A stretch of DNA of 4,828 nt from a virus (IMGVR_UViG_2547132270_000008); one strand, 5' to 3'; positions 388-4,678 are shown, counted from the first letter of the stretch. The notes: a model not told the origin generated them from the letters alone. Numbers and translations are program-made.

Positions 388-597
388 ATGCGTGAAATAA
401 ATGAAGATCGCGTAATCCGTGAGGATGAATGTCGTAAGTTAACTGGAGTGTGTCGCACTACACGCTATGAACTGGAGAAAAAAGGGAATTTCCCGTCACG
501 CCGTAATCTGGGCGGTCGTTCTGTAGGTTGGCTGCTGTCCGAGGTTATGGAATGGGTTAAAAGCCGGGATCGCATTAATTCAGGCAAGGCAGCGTAA
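388..597 (+). CDS. alpA: AlpA-family (Xis-like) small helix-turn-helix prophage regulatory protein, 69 aa
   Basis: Complete ORF, ATG 388 to TAA 595-597. Small basic protein with a central HTH-like segment and the C-terminal motif G-R-SVGW...E..EW that I recognise from AlpA/Vis/Xis-type regulators of P4-like elements. Weak AGG 7 nt upstream of the ATG. Family call is from motif memory, not a search. Confidence 0.85.
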   Translation: MREINEDRVIREDECRKLTGVCRTTRYELEKKGNFPSRRNLGGRSVGWLLSEVMEWVKSRDRINSGKAA

Positions 598-610
598 AGG
601 GGGGCATATG

Positions 611-647
611 ACACATAAAACAAAGGCGACCCGGATCAGAGGTCGCC
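611..647 (-). terminator. Putative intrinsic terminator for the minus-strand operon (hairpin plus U-tract on the minus strand only)
   Basis: Perfect 7-bp GC-rich inverted repeat GGCGACC (625-631) / GGTCGCC (641-647) with a 9-nt loop. On the minus strand the stem is followed immediately by TTTGTTTTATGTGT (complement of 624-611). On the plus strand no T-run follows the stem. Lies 65 bp downstream of the stop of ORF 712-921. Confidence 0.4.
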
Positions 648-711: not shown

Positions 712-921
712 TCAGCCTGGTGGGCGGTTCCTGTTAGCTTTCATTACCCGGGGCTGTTTATTGAGAAACTCATCAAGCGCAAATTTTGTAGGCGCTGGTT
801 CTGTATTTGGTGGCATTTGTTTAGCGTGTGCCTTTTCTTTCTGGCGTGCAACAATGCTCTGTAAAAGCAATCTTCGTTGTTCTGCGAAAATCTCTTCAGT
901 GGATAGGTATTTTTTGCTCAT
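712..921 (-). CDS. Hypothetical 69-aa protein, second gene of the minus-strand operon
   Basis: ATG at 921-919, TGA at 714-712. Charged, helix-prone sequence (MSKKYLSTEEIFAEQRRLLLQSIVARQKEKAHAKQ...), unlike the Cys/Ser/Arg/Trp-rich antisense plus-frame ORF 608-1561. Same strand as the RHH gene, 57 bp downstream of it, and followed by the 611-647 terminator. No family recognised. Confidence 0.5.
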   Translation of the reverse strand: MSKKYLSTEEIFAEQRRLLLQSIVARQKEKAHAKQMPPNTEPAPTKFALDEFLNKQPRVMKANRNRPPG

Positions 922-978: not shown

Positions 979-1158
979 TTATTCTTGCTCTTTAGCCTTG
1001 CGTCGCTGGCGGCGTTTGATCTCGCCTTCTAATGCGGCTGTTACAAACTGCCCTGTACTTTCGCCGTCTTCTTTGACCTTATCCATGGCATCAACGATAT
1101 GGAGTGGGACACGTGCATCTATTCTTTTCGATTTTGCATTTACTGATTTCGTTGCCAT
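979..1158 (-). CDS. Ribbon-helix-helix (CopG/Arc/MetJ-like) DNA-binding protein, 59 aa; candidate repressor
   Basis: ATG at 1158-1156, TAA at 981-979. The track ORF starts at an upstream GTG (1236) that would lie inside the palindromic operator region, so I prefer the ATG. Sequence MATKSVNAKSKRIDARVPLHIVDAMDKVKEDGESTGQFVTAALEGEIKRRQRRKAKEQE has a short basic N-terminal strand (KRIDARVPL), two helices and a basic tail, the RHH pattern. Weak GGA about 9 nt upstream. Confidence 0.6.
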   Translation of the reverse strand: MATKSVNAKSKRIDARVPLHIVDAMDKVKEDGESTGQFVTAALEGEIKRRQRRKAKEQE

Positions 1159-1179
1159 TTCTGATTTCCGATTGGTTTG

Positions 1180-1261
1180 GTGTCCGACAATGATAGCGAG
1201 AAAAAAGTTTAATGCAATGCTTGACGTGTCCCACACCGATAAAATAACATGTGTCCGACAC
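1180..1261. promoter_or_regulatory. Divergent promoter/operator region: three copies of the 11-bp palindrome GTGTC-C-GACAC overlapping candidate promoters for both strands
   Basis: Palindrome copies at 1180-1190 (GTGTCCGACAa, 10/11), 1226-1236 (GTGTCcCACAC, 10/11) and 1251-1261 (GTGTCCGACAC, perfect). Candidate plus-strand promoter TTGACG (1221-1226), 18-bp spacer, TAACAT (1245-1250). Candidate minus-strand promoter TTGCAT (complement of 1217-1212), 16-bp spacer, TATCAT (complement of 1195-1190). Promoter hexamers are weak matches called by eye. Confidence 0.45.
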
Positions 1262-1357
1262 TTGATTTTTATCAGTCATAAAATGACGAAACCCCGCACT
1301 GTTGGAGCAGTAACGGGGCTTCTAACCACCAACGATAGCGAAAGTATCGAGGTAGCT

Positions 1358-1561
1358 ATGCTAAATCATACCACACACCCGCAAGGGCGGGACTCGCACA
1401 ACCTGAATAAATACATCTGGCGTTTTATCGCCCTGAGCACCGCACAACCGCGCGTGATTCACATCGTGGCCACCAGCGAACAGGAAGCACGCCAGCAATC
1501 CCCGGCTGGCTGCGTGATGGTATTCGCCGCCCGTATTCGTCAGGGGGTGTGCCATGCCTGA
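1358..1561 (+). CDS. Hypothetical 67-aa protein, first ORF of the plus-strand operon
   Basis: ATG 1358 preceded by GAGGT (1349-1353). Stop TGA 1559-1561 overlaps the ATG at 1554 of the next ORF (ATGCCTGA). Codons are dominated by E. coli-preferred CTG/CCG/CGC/GTG/ATC/ACC. This is the 3' end of track ORF 608-1561, whose upstream part I treat as antisense artefact. Alternative in-frame ATG at 1283 has no SD. The opposite-strand ORF 1361-1555 is a competing reading. Confidence 0.4.
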   Translation: MLNHTTHPQGRDSHNLNKYIWRFIALSTAQPRVIHIVATSEQEARQQSPAGCVMVFAARIRQGVCHA

Positions 1562-1880: not shown

Positions 1881-2180
1881 ATGAGAACATATTTATCTGG
1901 CTTGACTGCCAGCGGTTATGCACACCCCAAAATTATCCCCGGCGCTATTTATTGGGATAAGAACGGCAACAGAGTAACAGTAAAATCGATAATGTTTGAC
2001 CGTGTGTATTTTATTCGTGATGGCTATTCATTTCATAGCTCGCTGAACGTGGAGATCTTTATTTGCAGATTCCGGCGGGAAATCCCGCCTTCCAGAAATA
2101 ACCATGTGTCATGTATGGATGTTGATAAAAAACTACAGGAACTGAAAAACATGATTGCCGCGTGGAGAGAGCAGAAATGA
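1881..2180 (+). CDS. Hypothetical 99-aa protein
   Basis: ATG 1881 (GGGG at 1867-1870). Stop TGA 2178-2180 overlaps the ATG 2177-2179 of the large replication gene (ATGA coupling). Contains a beta-rich-looking stretch YWDKNGNRVTVKSIMFDRVYFIRDGYSF. No family recognised. Confidence 0.55.
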   Translation: MRTYLSGLTASGYAHPKIIPGAIYWDKNGNRVTVKSIMFDRVYFIRDGYSFHSSLNVEIFICRFRREIPPSRNNHVSCMDVDKKLQELKNMIAAWREQK

Positions 2181-4300
2181 AAAAAGCGCCAAATTTAAAA
2201 CACCAGCCACGTGACAAAATGACGGAAGTCATCATTTTTGCGGGTAGTGATGCGTGGGCACATGCGAAGCAGTGGCAGGAACAGGACGGGCGACTGGCTG
2301 GCGATAACGTGCCTCCTGTCTGGCTTGGAGAGCAACAACTTGCCGAACTGGACAACCTGCAAATCGTACCGGACGGACGCTATCGCGTGCGTCTCTATCA
2401 GGCGGGGTTATTGCGTCCGGGGCTTGTTAATACCATCGGGCAGAAACTGGCAGCGGCAGGTGTCAGGGATGCTGATTATTACCCTGAAGGAATGCACAGC
2501 CAGAAACGGGAGAACTGGCGCGAATATCTGGAACGTGAACGGGCAGAGCAGGCGGAAAAGAAAAAGGTAGTTGAACTGCCTGTAAAGAAAAAAGAGCCAT
2601 GCTATCAGGATGATGAATTAAAGCCCCGCGTTGAAAGTCGCGTCGATGGTGTTTTCTGGGTAACGCCCAAAGTGGATAAGCAGTCAGGCGAAATTATCCG
2701 GCCTGAGACGTGGTTATGTTCTCCGCTTGAACTACTGGGAACGGGGACGATCGGTAAAGAGCATTACCGCGTGATGCGCTGGAAAAAATTAGCAAACCAT
2801 GAAGTCATCACAATGGCGATCCCGTGTGGTGGCATTGGCGACCGTGACGGCTGGCGGTTGCTTAAAGATCACGGGCTGAACGTGACAACAAACGGCAAAT
2901 ACAGGGCTATCCTGGCTGACTGGATGCAGTTAAGCGGAAGCCATGAGGAATGGCAGCTAAGCACAACAACGGGCTGGCATTTTGGCGCGTATATCATGCC
3001 GGACGGCTCAATCATTGGTGATTCTGAAAAACCGATCCTGTTTACCGGAAAAAGTGCCGCTGTTAATGGCTATTCGGTTGCGGGTACGGCGGAGGGCTGG
3101 CGCGACTGCGTGGCGCGGCTGGCTGGTGGCAATCCGTCCATGATGCTGGGTGTTGCCACGTCACTGGCAGCACCTTTGATTGGCCTTGTTGGTGCTGACG
3201 GCTTCGGGGTACATCTTTTCGAACAGTCATCGGCAGGGAAAACCACCACGCAGAACATCGCATCAAGTTTATGGGGAGAGCCGGACGCACAACGGCTGAC
3301 CTGGTACGGCACAGCGTTAGGTATCGCTAACGAGGCAGAGGCGCACAACGACGGGCTGTTACCCCTGGATGAAATAGGCCAGGCCGGAAACGCGCGGGAG
3401 GTGTCCACGTCAGCCTATACGTTGTTTAACGGTTCCGGGAAATTACAGGGGGCGAAGGACGGCGGCAACCGGGAGATAAAACACTGGCGCACGGTGGCAA
3501 TCAGCACCGGAGAAATGGACGTTGAGACATTCCTCAAAACGGAGGGGATAAAAGTCAAAGCGGGGCAGCTTGTCCGCCTGCTTAACGTTCCGATGGAAAA
3601 AGCCACGCACTTTCACGAATACAGCACCGGAAAGGCGCACGCAGACGCGTTAAAGGATGCCTGGACAGAAAATCACGGGGCAGCGGGTCGTGAGTGGGTT
3701 AAATGGCTGGCAGGCCACCAGCAGGAGGCAAAGGATACGGTAAGGGAATGCCGCGAACGGTGGCGCAACCTGATACCGGAGAGCTACGGCGAGCAGGTCC
3801 ACCGCGTGGGTGAGCGTTTCGCCATACTGGAGGCCGCGCTTGTGCTTTCCGGTCATGTAACTGGCTGGGCCGCGCAGGAATGCCGGGACGCAATACAGCA
3901 TAACTTTAATGCCTGGGTGAAGGAGTTCGGCACGGGTAACAGGGAATTTAAACAGATGGTTGAACAGGCTGAGGCGTTTTTGTCGTCGTTCGGGTTCAGT
4001 CGATACCTTCCTTACCCAAACAGTGATGAACGTGATTTACCGATTAAAGACCTTGCCGGATACAGAAAGGGGAGTATCAGAAATGAAGATGATGAGTTCC
4101 GTTTTTACACGTTTCCTCATGTGTTTGAGGGGGAGATCGCACAGGGATTTAACCCGTCCCACTTTGCCCGCGCGTTGAGTGCTGCCGGAATGCTGGAAGC
4201 GGGTAACGATCGCCGTTACAAGAAAAAGGCTCTCGGCAAAATTGGGGGGAAGCAGCATGTTTTTTACGTGCTGATGTTCCAGCCTGAGGCAGAAGATTAA
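2177..4300 (+). CDS. Replication initiator of the primase/helicase type found in P4-like satellites and PICIs (P-loop NTPase core; often annotated as DUF927 / P4-family primase), ~707 aa
   Basis: Long uninterrupted ORF. I place the start at ATG 2177 (GGAGAG at 2164-2169, 7 nt upstream; ATGA overlap with the preceding ORF) rather than the track GTG at 2162. Stop TAA 4298-4300. Walker A-like SSAGKTT (nt 3227-3247) and Walker B-like LLPLDE (nt 3356-3373) are in frame. Size, position downstream of alpA and adjacency to an iteron origin fit the family. The N-terminal stretch VIIFAGSDAWA resembles a Toprim strand but lacks the usual acidic residue, so primase activity is unproven. Confidence 0.8.
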   Translation: MKKAPNLKHQPRDKMTEVIIFAGSDAWAHAKQWQEQDGRLAGDNVPPVWLGEQQLAELDNLQIVPDGRYRVRLYQAGLLRPGLVNTIGQKLAAAGVRDADYYPEGMHSQKRENWREYLERERAEQAEKKKVVELPVKKKEPCYQDDELKPRVESRVDGVFWVTPKVDKQSGEIIRPETWLCSPLELLGTGTIGKEHYRVMRWKKLANHEVITMAIPCGGIGDRDGWRLLKDHGLNVTTNGKYRAILADWMQLSGSHEEWQLSTTTGWHFGAYIMPDGSIIGDSEKPILFTGKSAAVNGYSVAGTAEGWRDCVARLAGGNPSMMLGVATSLAAPLIGLVGADGFGVHLFEQSSAGKTTTQNIASSLWGEPDAQRLTWYGTALGIANEAEAHNDGLLPLDEIGQAGNAREVSTSAYTLFNGSGKLQGAKDGGNREIKHWRTVAISTGEMDVETFLKTEGIKVKAGQLVRLLNVPMEKATHFHEYSTGKAHADALKDAWTENHGAAGREWVKWLAGHQQEAKDTVRECRERWRNLIPESYGEQVHRVGERFAILEAALVLSGHVTGWAAQECRDAIQHNFNAWVKEFGTGNREFKQMVEQAEAFLSSFGFSRYLPYPNSDERDLPIKDLAGYRKGSIRNEDDEFRFYTFPHVFEGEIAQGFNPSHFARALSAAGMLEAGNDRRYKKKALGKIGGKQHVFYVLMFQPEAED

Positions 4301-4322
4301 CCCCCTGTGTGAGGTGAAAAGT

Positions 4323-4639
4323 TGCGGGTTATGCGGGTTACTCTGTGTATAAGTGCATTAACTGCATGAATAAAAAGGAAATCAATAACCCGCACGTAAC
4401 CCGCAAAACGGCAGTTATAACCCGCAAAAGTGCGATTATAACCCGCAGATGAATAACAGGAAGTGACAGCAAACAGCCACGCGTAACCCGCAGAAAAAAC
4501 CCCGTTTGCGGGTTATTTTGAGCATTTTGCGGGTTACGCCACGGCTAAACAGTAAACAGTTAATTTTGTAATGTATTGATATTAAGGAATAAAAAATACT
4601 TAGCAAGCGAAGATAACCCGCTAACCCGCATAACCCGCA
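4323..4639. repeat. Putative origin of replication: 12 copies of the 9-bp iteron TAACCCGCA (both orientations) flanking an AT-rich spacer
   Basis: Reverse-orientation TGCGGGTTA at 4323-4331, 4332-4340, 4507-4515, 4528-4536. Forward TAACCCGCA at 4386-4394, 4397-4405, 4418-4426, 4439-4447, 4484-4492, 4614-4622 (TAACCCGCt), 4622-4630, 4631-4639. Spacings of 9, 11, 21 and 21 bp recur. AT-rich spacer 4541-4612 contains tandem TAAACAG x2. The array begins 23 bp after the replication gene stop. Confidence 0.65.
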
Positions 4640-4678
4640 CTGTTTTGTATATATATACGAAAAATTGAGATCTGAACT

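Follow-up and report, generated by a model that had tools for sequence, protein, structure and literature searches.

The window described here, a stretch of 4,828 nucleotides (nt) from the virus record IMGVR_UViG_2547132270_000008, is a capsid-forming phage satellite of Escherichia coli of the phage-inducible chromosomal island (PICI) type, as judged by its capsid-forming PICI (cf-PICI) gene set. Between the minus-strand gene of a 59-amino-acid ribbon-helix-helix (RHH) protein of the YlcI/YnfO family and the first gene of a plus-strand operon, which encodes an Icd-like protein, the window carries three short repeated boxes, designated O1, O2 and O3. These boxes are likely, with a probability of roughly 0.75, to be operators through which the adjacent RHH protein would regulate its own gene and silence the replication operon. 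The reading rests on sequence comparison, in which the centre of the box changes in step with two residues of the predicted DNA-facing strand of the RHH protein.

The three boxes have the direct 10-mer GTGTCC[G/C]ACA as their exact common part and are spaced by 46 and 25 bp from start to start (Table 1). The first-pass annotation had described them as three copies of an 11-bp palindrome, and the three positions were recovered, but only O3 is an exact palindrome; O1 and O2 each deviate from it at a single base out of 11. When up to two mismatches were allowed, the palindrome gave seven strand-hits in the window against 0.86 expected, a number reached by none of 200 shuffles. Any 10-mer present three times with at most one mismatch was found in 6 of 1,000 doublet-preserving shuffles of the 199-nt intergenic region. 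In a 17-kb island copy, the box word at one mismatch or less occurs in the three boxes, at one site within the RHH open reading frame (ORF) and at one distant site (16825-16834). The site within the RHH ORF recurs in locus L008 and is missing from the other specificity classes. It is possibly an auxiliary (fourth) operator site, and it may also be a coincidental by-product of the codons, because the codons R-V-P-[LH] of this class spell the box.

Homologous loci, given below as L numbers where they need to be told apart, were obtained from E. coli genomes, species-representative genomes, metagenomes and viral contigs, and gave 130 protein/intergenic pairings that differ from one another. When the most repeated 10-mer of each was sought de novo, nearly every locus proved to have three boxes, the first two at about +22 and +67/68 from the RHH ATG and the third at +88 to +107. 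Box-bearing loci were found in E. coli, Salmonella, Yersinia, Pectobacterium, Xenorhabdus and others, and some islands of the QT[VI]AAR class have a fourth box just upstream of the -35 element. The general form of the box is GTG-N5-CA(C), with conserved GTG and CA(C) arms and an N5 core that is identical, or one base apart, among the boxes of one island and different between islands. Each island's own word is essentially confined to its boxes within the locus of about 4 kb.

Most classes have asymmetric cores, with symmetry limited to the GTG...CAC arms, and islands with such a core have the third box in inverted orientation (GTGTAAGACA, GTGTATTTCA, GTGTGTTTCA, GTGGAACAC). Palindromy is therefore a property of the specificity class of the window and not of the family. 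The exact palindrome itself is absent from homologous islands, which formally counts against the switch as it was first framed; however, a class-specific box takes the place of the palindrome at the same position, and this strengthens the operator reading.

Residues of the RHH strand are numbered here as in the window (S10 K11 R12 I13 D14 A15 R16); R12 and D14 vary with the class of the box and R16 is nearly invariant. About 12 beta-strand classes, written as residues 11-16, map one-to-one onto box cores: KR[IF]D[AV]R with GTGTCCGACA, KKIDVR with GTGTC[A/T]GACA, [KR]KLEAR with GTGGCTGACA, Q[SA]LK[SA]R with GTGGGCCACA, QS[VIL]T[AV]R with GTGTAAGACA, QMTT[VI]R with GTGTATTTCA, QLTTVR with GTGTGTTTCA, QT[VIL]AAR with GTGTTCAACA, KKMQAR with GTGGAGCACA, QK[LV]QAR with GTGGAGTCCA, QKIHAR with GTGGAACAC, and QQLNAR with GTGCGATTCA. 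The comparative check suggested in the first-pass annotation, that box copies and RHH recognition residues should co-vary across related islands, was thus positive, with the core tracking residues 12 and 14.

Because the gene and the boxes lie less than 100 bp apart, co-inheritance alone could yield such a correspondence, and all pairs of loci were therefore stratified by the identity of the remaining protein (the scaffold). Pairs with the same residues 12/14 have the same core in 90-100 % of cases in every identity bin, including all 14 of the pairs below 40 % identity. For pairs with different residues 12/14, the same core is found in 0-4 % of cases in the bins below 80 % scaffold identity and in 46 % in the bin of 80 % or more, the latter figure being attributed to conservative S/A and L/M substitutions. 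A swap is seen in L054, which has the 101-amino-acid scaffold of L006 (86 % identical) and yet carries the QSLTAR strand and GTGTAAGACA boxes of L002 (44 % identical). AlpA, the island activator, is 99-100 % identical between islands with different boxes (the window and L054, L002 and L004, L003 and L055), and the Icd-like protein of the window is 96 % identical to that of L006 or L054 despite their different boxes, so neither protein co-varies with the boxes. The earlier choice of the adjacent RHH protein as the candidate ligand is well borne out by this pattern.

Copies that share a genome usually fall into different classes. Genomes with several copies of mixed class include Yersinia pekkanenii and four Xenorhabdus species (L008/L029/L033, L019/L036/L042, L017/L043, L014/L044 and L040/L041), and an exception is X. 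indica, in which all copies are KKLEAR and are partly fragmentary. Several rearranged loci were also observed. L005 (1809-2729) has two tandem RHH cassettes of unlike specificity, with three GTGTATTTCA and three GTGTAAGACA boxes respectively, and a remnant of the antisense/leader region follows the first of them. L018 and L052 (both at about 1870-2000) have lost the sequence between box 1 and box 3, and with it the promoters, so that a single hybrid box remains; this looks like recombination between direct repeats in decaying copies. In L056 (3138-3450), whose AlpA is 97 % identical, a gene for a different, Arc-like small protein (PFQFRLDPDL...) occupies the site of the YlcI/YnfO gene and is accompanied by its own palindrome, GTGTAATGACACATTACAC, which suggests an exchangeable repressor/operator cassette.

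The boxes had further been placed on two divergent promoters, and this part of the annotation fared differently on the two strands. The plus-strand promoter of the icd-like operon was found by a promoter consensus scan, whereas the minus-strand promoter of the RHH gene is below the scan threshold and was read from sequence. Among the aligned homologues, the TTGAC of the plus-strand -35 shows little or no variation and lies immediately against box 2, with a TAnnnT hexamer 17-18 nt beyond it. Box 3 sits on the +1 or a little after it, and in classes other than that of the window it lies as far as about +17. On the other strand the family consensus beside box 1 is cagtatac, which reads TATACT on the minus strand and makes the RHH -10 plausible. 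A second plus-strand promoter (CCGACA at 1255, TAAAAT at 1284) was dropped as weak and not conserved in the homologues. The conserved box positions, together with the covariation with the RHH strand, support the proposal that an autoregulated repressor would also shut off the replication operon.

Membership of the RHH protein in the YlcI/YnfO family (NCBIfam NF041551) is indicated by a score of 58.7 bits against a cutoff of 30, and the Prokaryotic Genome Annotation Pipeline (PGAP) gives an identical protein the same name. A longer frame from the GTG at 1236 (85 amino acids) was rejected, since all homologues and the PGAP annotation start at MAT (1158). The AlphaFold model built from 40 homologues (predicted local distance difference test score 89) has an extended N-terminus followed by two helices, a predicted beta-alpha-alpha fold of about 45 residues as in the MetJ/Arc/CopG superfamily. 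A weak hhalign register places R12, D14 and R16 on Arc Q9, N11 and R13, and P18 on P15. Gln9, Asn11 and Arg13 are the base-contacting residues in the Arc-operator complex. The covarying residues 12 and 14 and the near-invariant Arg16 would therefore occupy the three positions expected to face the DNA. A tblastn search of 50,697 phage records found nothing. The YlcI gene of E. coli K-12 adjoins cos/nohD in prophage DLP12, and a comparable box triplet was not seen at that locus.

In the proposed mechanism, an RHH dimer would place its two-stranded beta-sheet in the major groove at each 11-bp GTG-N5-CAC box, with the near-invariant Arg16 reading the symmetric GTG/CAC arms and residues 12 and 14 (Arg and Asp here) reading the class-specific centre (TCCGA here). 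In the quiescent island O2, in the spacer by the -35, and O3, over the +1, would be occupied, and from their positions on the icd-like promoter a bound repressor would be expected to exclude RNA polymerase and keep the replication module silent. Binding at O1, over the -10/+1 of the divergent promoter of the repressor itself, would give negative autoregulation. A putative constitutive antisense RNA, described below, may act as a second lock by base-pairing with the icd-like message across its start codon and ribosome-binding site, so that translation of any message escaping repression would be blocked, as SymR does for symE. For the relief of repression, the leading guess is AlpA-driven transcription converging on the RHH operon, and a helper-encoded anti-repressor is another candidate. 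The terminator of the RHH operon works for the minus strand only (its plus strand is without a T-run, by terminator scan and RNA fold), and AlpA-driven read-through could therefore interfere with RHH expression. This guess takes its cue from the prototype Gram-negative PICI, EcCICFT073, in which over-expression of AlpA alone induces the island and deletion of alpA abolishes induction (PMC6092414).

The segment between the boxes and the icd-like gene (1280-1357) is a predicted SymR-like antisense RNA gene on the minus strand and not a passive leader. The 5′ end of the RNA would lie at the complement of the icd-like ATG, followed by an anti-Shine-Dalgarno hairpin and a terminator hairpin (1321 to 1291) that runs into UUUCGUCAUUUU. 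Of 73 distinct sequences, nearly all have the minus-strand TAnnnT of its predicted promoter at one constant distance from the start-codon complement. More than 1,000 E. coli genomes share the sequence beyond about 1281 at 90-97 % identity, and the hairpins show compensatory changes. By RNAalifold the minus strand folds at -21.6 kcal/mol and the plus strand at -3.8 kcal/mol, and the minus-strand structure is made up of 813 Watson-Crick and 135 G-U pairs with 20 mismatches. In the 46-sequence alignment, 95.1 % of the cells are paired, compared with 36-47 % when the partners are slid, and none of 500 shuffles reached the observed values. Eleven pairs in this alignment are changed on both sides, on the minus strand only.

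The likeness to SymR lies in architecture and register, namely an RNA of about 77 nt that begins opposite the start codon of its target and has two 5′ helices and a terminator hairpin. The Rfam SymR model (RF01809) has no match in the window at E of 10 or less; in relatives it matches at the same position and strand with consistent but sub-threshold scores of 28-36 bits against a gathering score of 61. Covariance model R1, built only from island sequences, matches the annotated symR of K-12 over its full length (31.6 bits, E 4.7e-6), and it scores 74.9 bits on the window by construction, the window sequence being in its training set. It also matches islands outside the training set, and of 33 further loci searched, 31 have the antisense RNA beside the RHH gene. 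The predicted antisense promoter is embedded in the opening codons of the Icd-like genes (M-x-N-H-T or M-A-D-x-Q-S/H-T-Q-T; 1358-1380 in the window, 3320-3341 in L220). The symE gene begins M-T-D-T-H-S. The symE and icd-like genes may share a 5′ regulatory cassette, at which the sequence hints.

Three other assignments of this segment were considered. An immunity RNA of the C4/CI type upstream of icd, as in P1 and P4, was rejected, no Rfam C4 or isrK match being found at E of 10 or less. A structured plus-strand leader, attenuator or AlpA-bypassed terminator was also rejected, as the fold is weak and its apparent mismatches are G-U pairs of the minus strand. A match to the P22 sar RNA (RF00262) at 1267-1326 on the plus strand is full-length but weak (14 bits, E 3.7), comprises one hairpin and is probably due to chance.

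Several points weigh against the operator reading. The RHH protein has no significant match to a curated RHH family: the protein of the window is without a Pfam hit, and the best Pfam matches among the 40 homologues are weak (PF07704, E 0.026; PF18064, E 0.029). Searches with the RHH protein by sequence against the PDB and by Foldseek against the PDB returned nothing, and the hhalign comparison with Arc has a probability of 6.8 %. The fold assignment, given the empty PDB and Foldseek searches and the weak Pfam hits, thus rests on structure prediction. Both promoters are consensus matches only, and that on the minus strand has a poor -35 and fails the scan threshold. Since no more than 100 bp separates the RHH strand from the boxes, part of the covariation is co-inheritance, and independent swap events are few. 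The induction of EcCICFT073 by AlpA alone, and its loss on deletion of alpA, imply that the RHH protein is not an autonomous master switch and that AlpA either overrides it or acts through it.

This last point leads to the alternative that the RHH protein binds the boxes as part of a containment or addiction cassette for a toxic Icd-like protein, and not of a life-cycle switch, with replication chiefly under AlpA. The first gene under the boxes is indeed Icd-like, of a host cell-division inhibitor family, and it is opposed by an antisense RNA resembling SymR, the RNA antitoxin of symE, in the manner of type I toxin-antitoxin control; AlpA, moreover, is enough for induction in the prototype (PMC6092414). 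From icd-like through the primase/replicase gene (pri-rep), however, the ORFs lie on one strand, overlap or abut, and show no evident promoter or terminator between them, so that repression of the icd-like promoter should silence replication too, and the containment cassette is considered unlikely. A far less probable reading pairs the RHH protein, as antitoxin, with the 69-amino-acid ORF encoded downstream in its operon in a type II toxin-antitoxin system, the boxes being the autoregulatory operator. That ORF has no Pfam, PHROG or NCBIfam match, no toxin family among them; it is weakly conserved and is missing from L003, L004, L054 and L055, which keep the RHH gene and the boxes, and two of the three boxes lie on the divergent promoter and not on that of the RHH operon.

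Binding of the boxes by some other factor (AlpA, integrase at arm sites, the Icd-like protein, or a host or helper-phage protein), with the RHH protein unrelated, has little to recommend it and is just as improbable as the type II pair. It could draw on AlpA being a known activator of island genes and on the label 'transcriptional repressor' carried by PHROG 6196, which the Icd-like protein matches. Both proteins are nevertheless near-identical between islands with different boxes, a host factor could not explain about 12 island-specific box classes, and the box class follows RHH residues 12/14 even across dissimilar scaffolds. The suggestion that the repeats arose by chance or are functionless leftovers of duplication, for which the single perfect palindrome among the three copies might be cited, is effectively refuted by the comparative data, given the rarity of such triplets in shuffled sequence and the conserved positions and concerted sequence change across 130 loci of many genera.

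The arrangement read here as RHH operators resembles several known systems without matching any of them. The immI region of P22 (Mnt/Arc, Pmnt/Pant, sar) likewise has small RHH repressors, operators over back-to-back divergent promoters with autoregulation, and a short cis-antisense RNA across the ribosome-binding site of the first regulated gene. It differs in having two repressors instead of one, a single 21-bp tetramer-bound operator instead of three or four 11-bp boxes, and an antirepressor as the regulated gene instead of icd-like and the replication operon. The antisense RNA of the islands is SymR-like, the 14-bit sar match being on the other strand, and homology to immI beyond the fold is not detectable. 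SymR/SymE of E. coli K-12 shares a cis-antisense RNA of about 77 nt that starts at the complement of the target start codon and has its own terminator in the target leader; the target there is SymE and here the satellite Icd-like protein, and the Rfam SymR threshold is not reached. In the immI region of phage P1, icd is held down by c4 RNA. This RNA acts in trans from the same transcript and belongs to a different family, a C4 match not being found in the window. The omega protein of pSM19035 is an analogue, with CopG of pMV158, in which one dimer binds each short repeat in either orientation; its operators are 7-10 contiguous 7-bp heptads, whereas the island boxes are 11 bp long, number three or four and lie apart from one another at set promoter positions, and the family has diversified to about 12 specificity classes. 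The Stl/Rpr repressors of Gram-positive PICIs, the Staphylococcus aureus pathogenicity islands (SaPIs), are functional analogues but larger, non-RHH proteins. Their genes are also divergent from the excision/replication operon and lie between the integrase and replication sides (PMC6092414). They are relieved by binding of a helper-phage protein, whereas here AlpA is needed for induction and the RHH protein is the putative repressor.

The remaining features of the window are consistent with a satellite genome (Table 1). The window is 99.4 % identical to the PGAP-annotated E. coli chromosome of L001, where the island region adjoins cspD/yljB; window coordinates are those of L001 minus 7401. The gene order in L001 is integrase and alpA, then a small ORF and the YlcI/YnfO-family gene on the opposite strand, followed by the Icd-like gene, a hypothetical gene, DUF4222, the DUF927 primase/replicase, an iteron origin, single-stranded DNA-binding protein, major capsid, prohead protease, portal, connector, HNH and terS. 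The features of Gram-negative PICIs and cf-PICIs are thus present, with int, alpA, pri-rep and an iteron origin beside it, a length of about 10-15 kb, and the island's own capsid, protease, portal, HNH and terS. The earlier gene starts for the minus-strand RHH gene (1158) and the first plus-strand ORF (1358) agree with the PGAP annotation of this chromosome. The 69-amino-acid ORF belongs to a small-protein family with the motif P..FAL[DE].FL in the alignment and is present in some islands only. Directly 3′ of the primase/replicase gene, the region 4322-4640 combines AT-rich stretches with at least 13 flanking copies of TAACCCGCA in the two orientations, and it is the expected iteron origin of the island.

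Table 1 Coordinates of observed and predicted features in the window
Feature	Position	Strand	Basis and remarks
alpA (AlpA-family regulator/excisionase)	388..597	+	Pfam PF05930, 59.5 bits; annotated in L001; convergent with the minus-strand RHH operon
Intrinsic terminator of the RHH operon, GGCGACC...GGTCGCC then TTTGTTTTAT (hairpin 647 to 615)	615..647	-	Terminator scan and RNA fold
69-amino-acid ORF 3′ of the RHH gene, same operon	712..921	-	ORF list
59-amino-acid YlcI/YnfO-family RHH protein, candidate repressor	979..1158	-	Beta-strand at residues 11-17 (K-R-I-D-A-R-V)
Box-like sequence in the RHH ORF, codons R16-V17-P18-L19	1101..1114	.	13 of 14 bases equal O2 and flanks, inverted
Box O1, GTGTCCGACAA	1180..1190	.	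10/11 match; overlaps the RHH promoter at the final base of its minus-strand -10 and at its predicted +1
Predicted -10 of the RHH promoter, TATCAT (1195 to 1190)	1190..1195	-	Read from sequence; below scan threshold
Predicted weak -35 of the RHH promoter, TTGCAT (1217 to 1212)	1212..1217	-	Read from sequence; 16-nt spacer; poorly conserved in the family
-35 of the icd-like/DUF4222/pri-rep operon promoter, TTGACG	1221..1226	+	Promoter consensus scan; last base is the first G of O2
Box O2, GTGTCCCACAC	1226..1236	.	10/11 match; in the spacer immediately 3′ of the plus-strand -35
-10 of the icd-like operon promoter, TAACAT	1245..1250	+	Promoter consensus scan; 18-nt spacer
Box O3, GTGTCCGACAC	1251..1261	.	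Exact palindrome; begins one base after the -10 and spans the predicted +1 of the icd-like promoter
Putative SymR-like cis-antisense RNA gene, about 80 nt (1362 to 1280)	1280..1362	-	Covariance model R1, RNAalifold, pair covariation
Icd-like small protein gene, first in the operon under the boxes	1358..1561	+	NCBIfam NF033153, 71.2 bits; PHROG 6196
Predicted extended -10 of the antisense RNA promoter, TGgTATGAT (1373 to 1365), in icd-like codons 3-6	1365..1373	-	Conserved TAnnnT
DUF927 primase/replicase, last gene of the operon within the window	2177..4300	+	Pfam PF06048, PHROG 1139

The same module of RHH gene, boxes, antisense RNA and Icd-like gene is present in EcCICFT073 (L058 8243-9053, corresponding to NC_004431.1 1380242-1381052), with the YlcI/YnfO gene C_RS30120, boxes GTGGGGGACA/GTGGGCCACA/GTGGGCCACA and the Icd-like gene C_RS30125. 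The high numbers of the locus tags C_RS30120, C_RS30125 and C_RS30800 suggest that they were added to the annotation at a later date. The paper that defined the Gram-negative PICIs described AlpA as an activator, ascribed induction to helper-induced alpA and called the global repressor "unclear" (PMC6092414). Later papers on these islands dealt with an integration zone, a 'Bro zone' with C4/isrK-type RNAs and AlpA dependence. No description of an RHH repressor or a SymR-like RNA in these islands was found in the literature searched, subscription-only papers lying outside it. The module occurs in at least 870 of 5,426 complete E. coli genomes, with up to six copies per genome.

A broader proposal can be put forward tentatively, although it is doubtful: the YlcI/YnfO RHH protein and its boxes may be the long-missing immunity or master repressor of Gram-negative PICIs, EcCICFT073 included. 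Its dozen or more orthogonal classes would avoid cross-repression between co-resident satellites, AlpA-driven transcription antisense to the convergent RHH operon would drain the repressor by transcriptional interference, and the SymR-like RNA would be the second lock on a toxic first gene. On the comparative evidence the module is best described as a diversified RHH repressor/operator switch of a familiar kind, with a putative SymR-like antisense RNA beside it, and the latter would belong to a group of SymR-like antisense RNAs, so far unlisted, that lie opposite icd-like genes. The module would offer about 12 natural repressor/operator pairs, with specificity apparently set by two residues, for the study of RHH-DNA recognition and as orthogonal parts, and if the correspondence is true, the assignment of residues 12/14 to box cores would constitute a natural recognition code for re-engineering RHH specificity. 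For the Gram-negative phage satellites themselves, it provides a concrete and widespread candidate for their repressor, overlooked so far.

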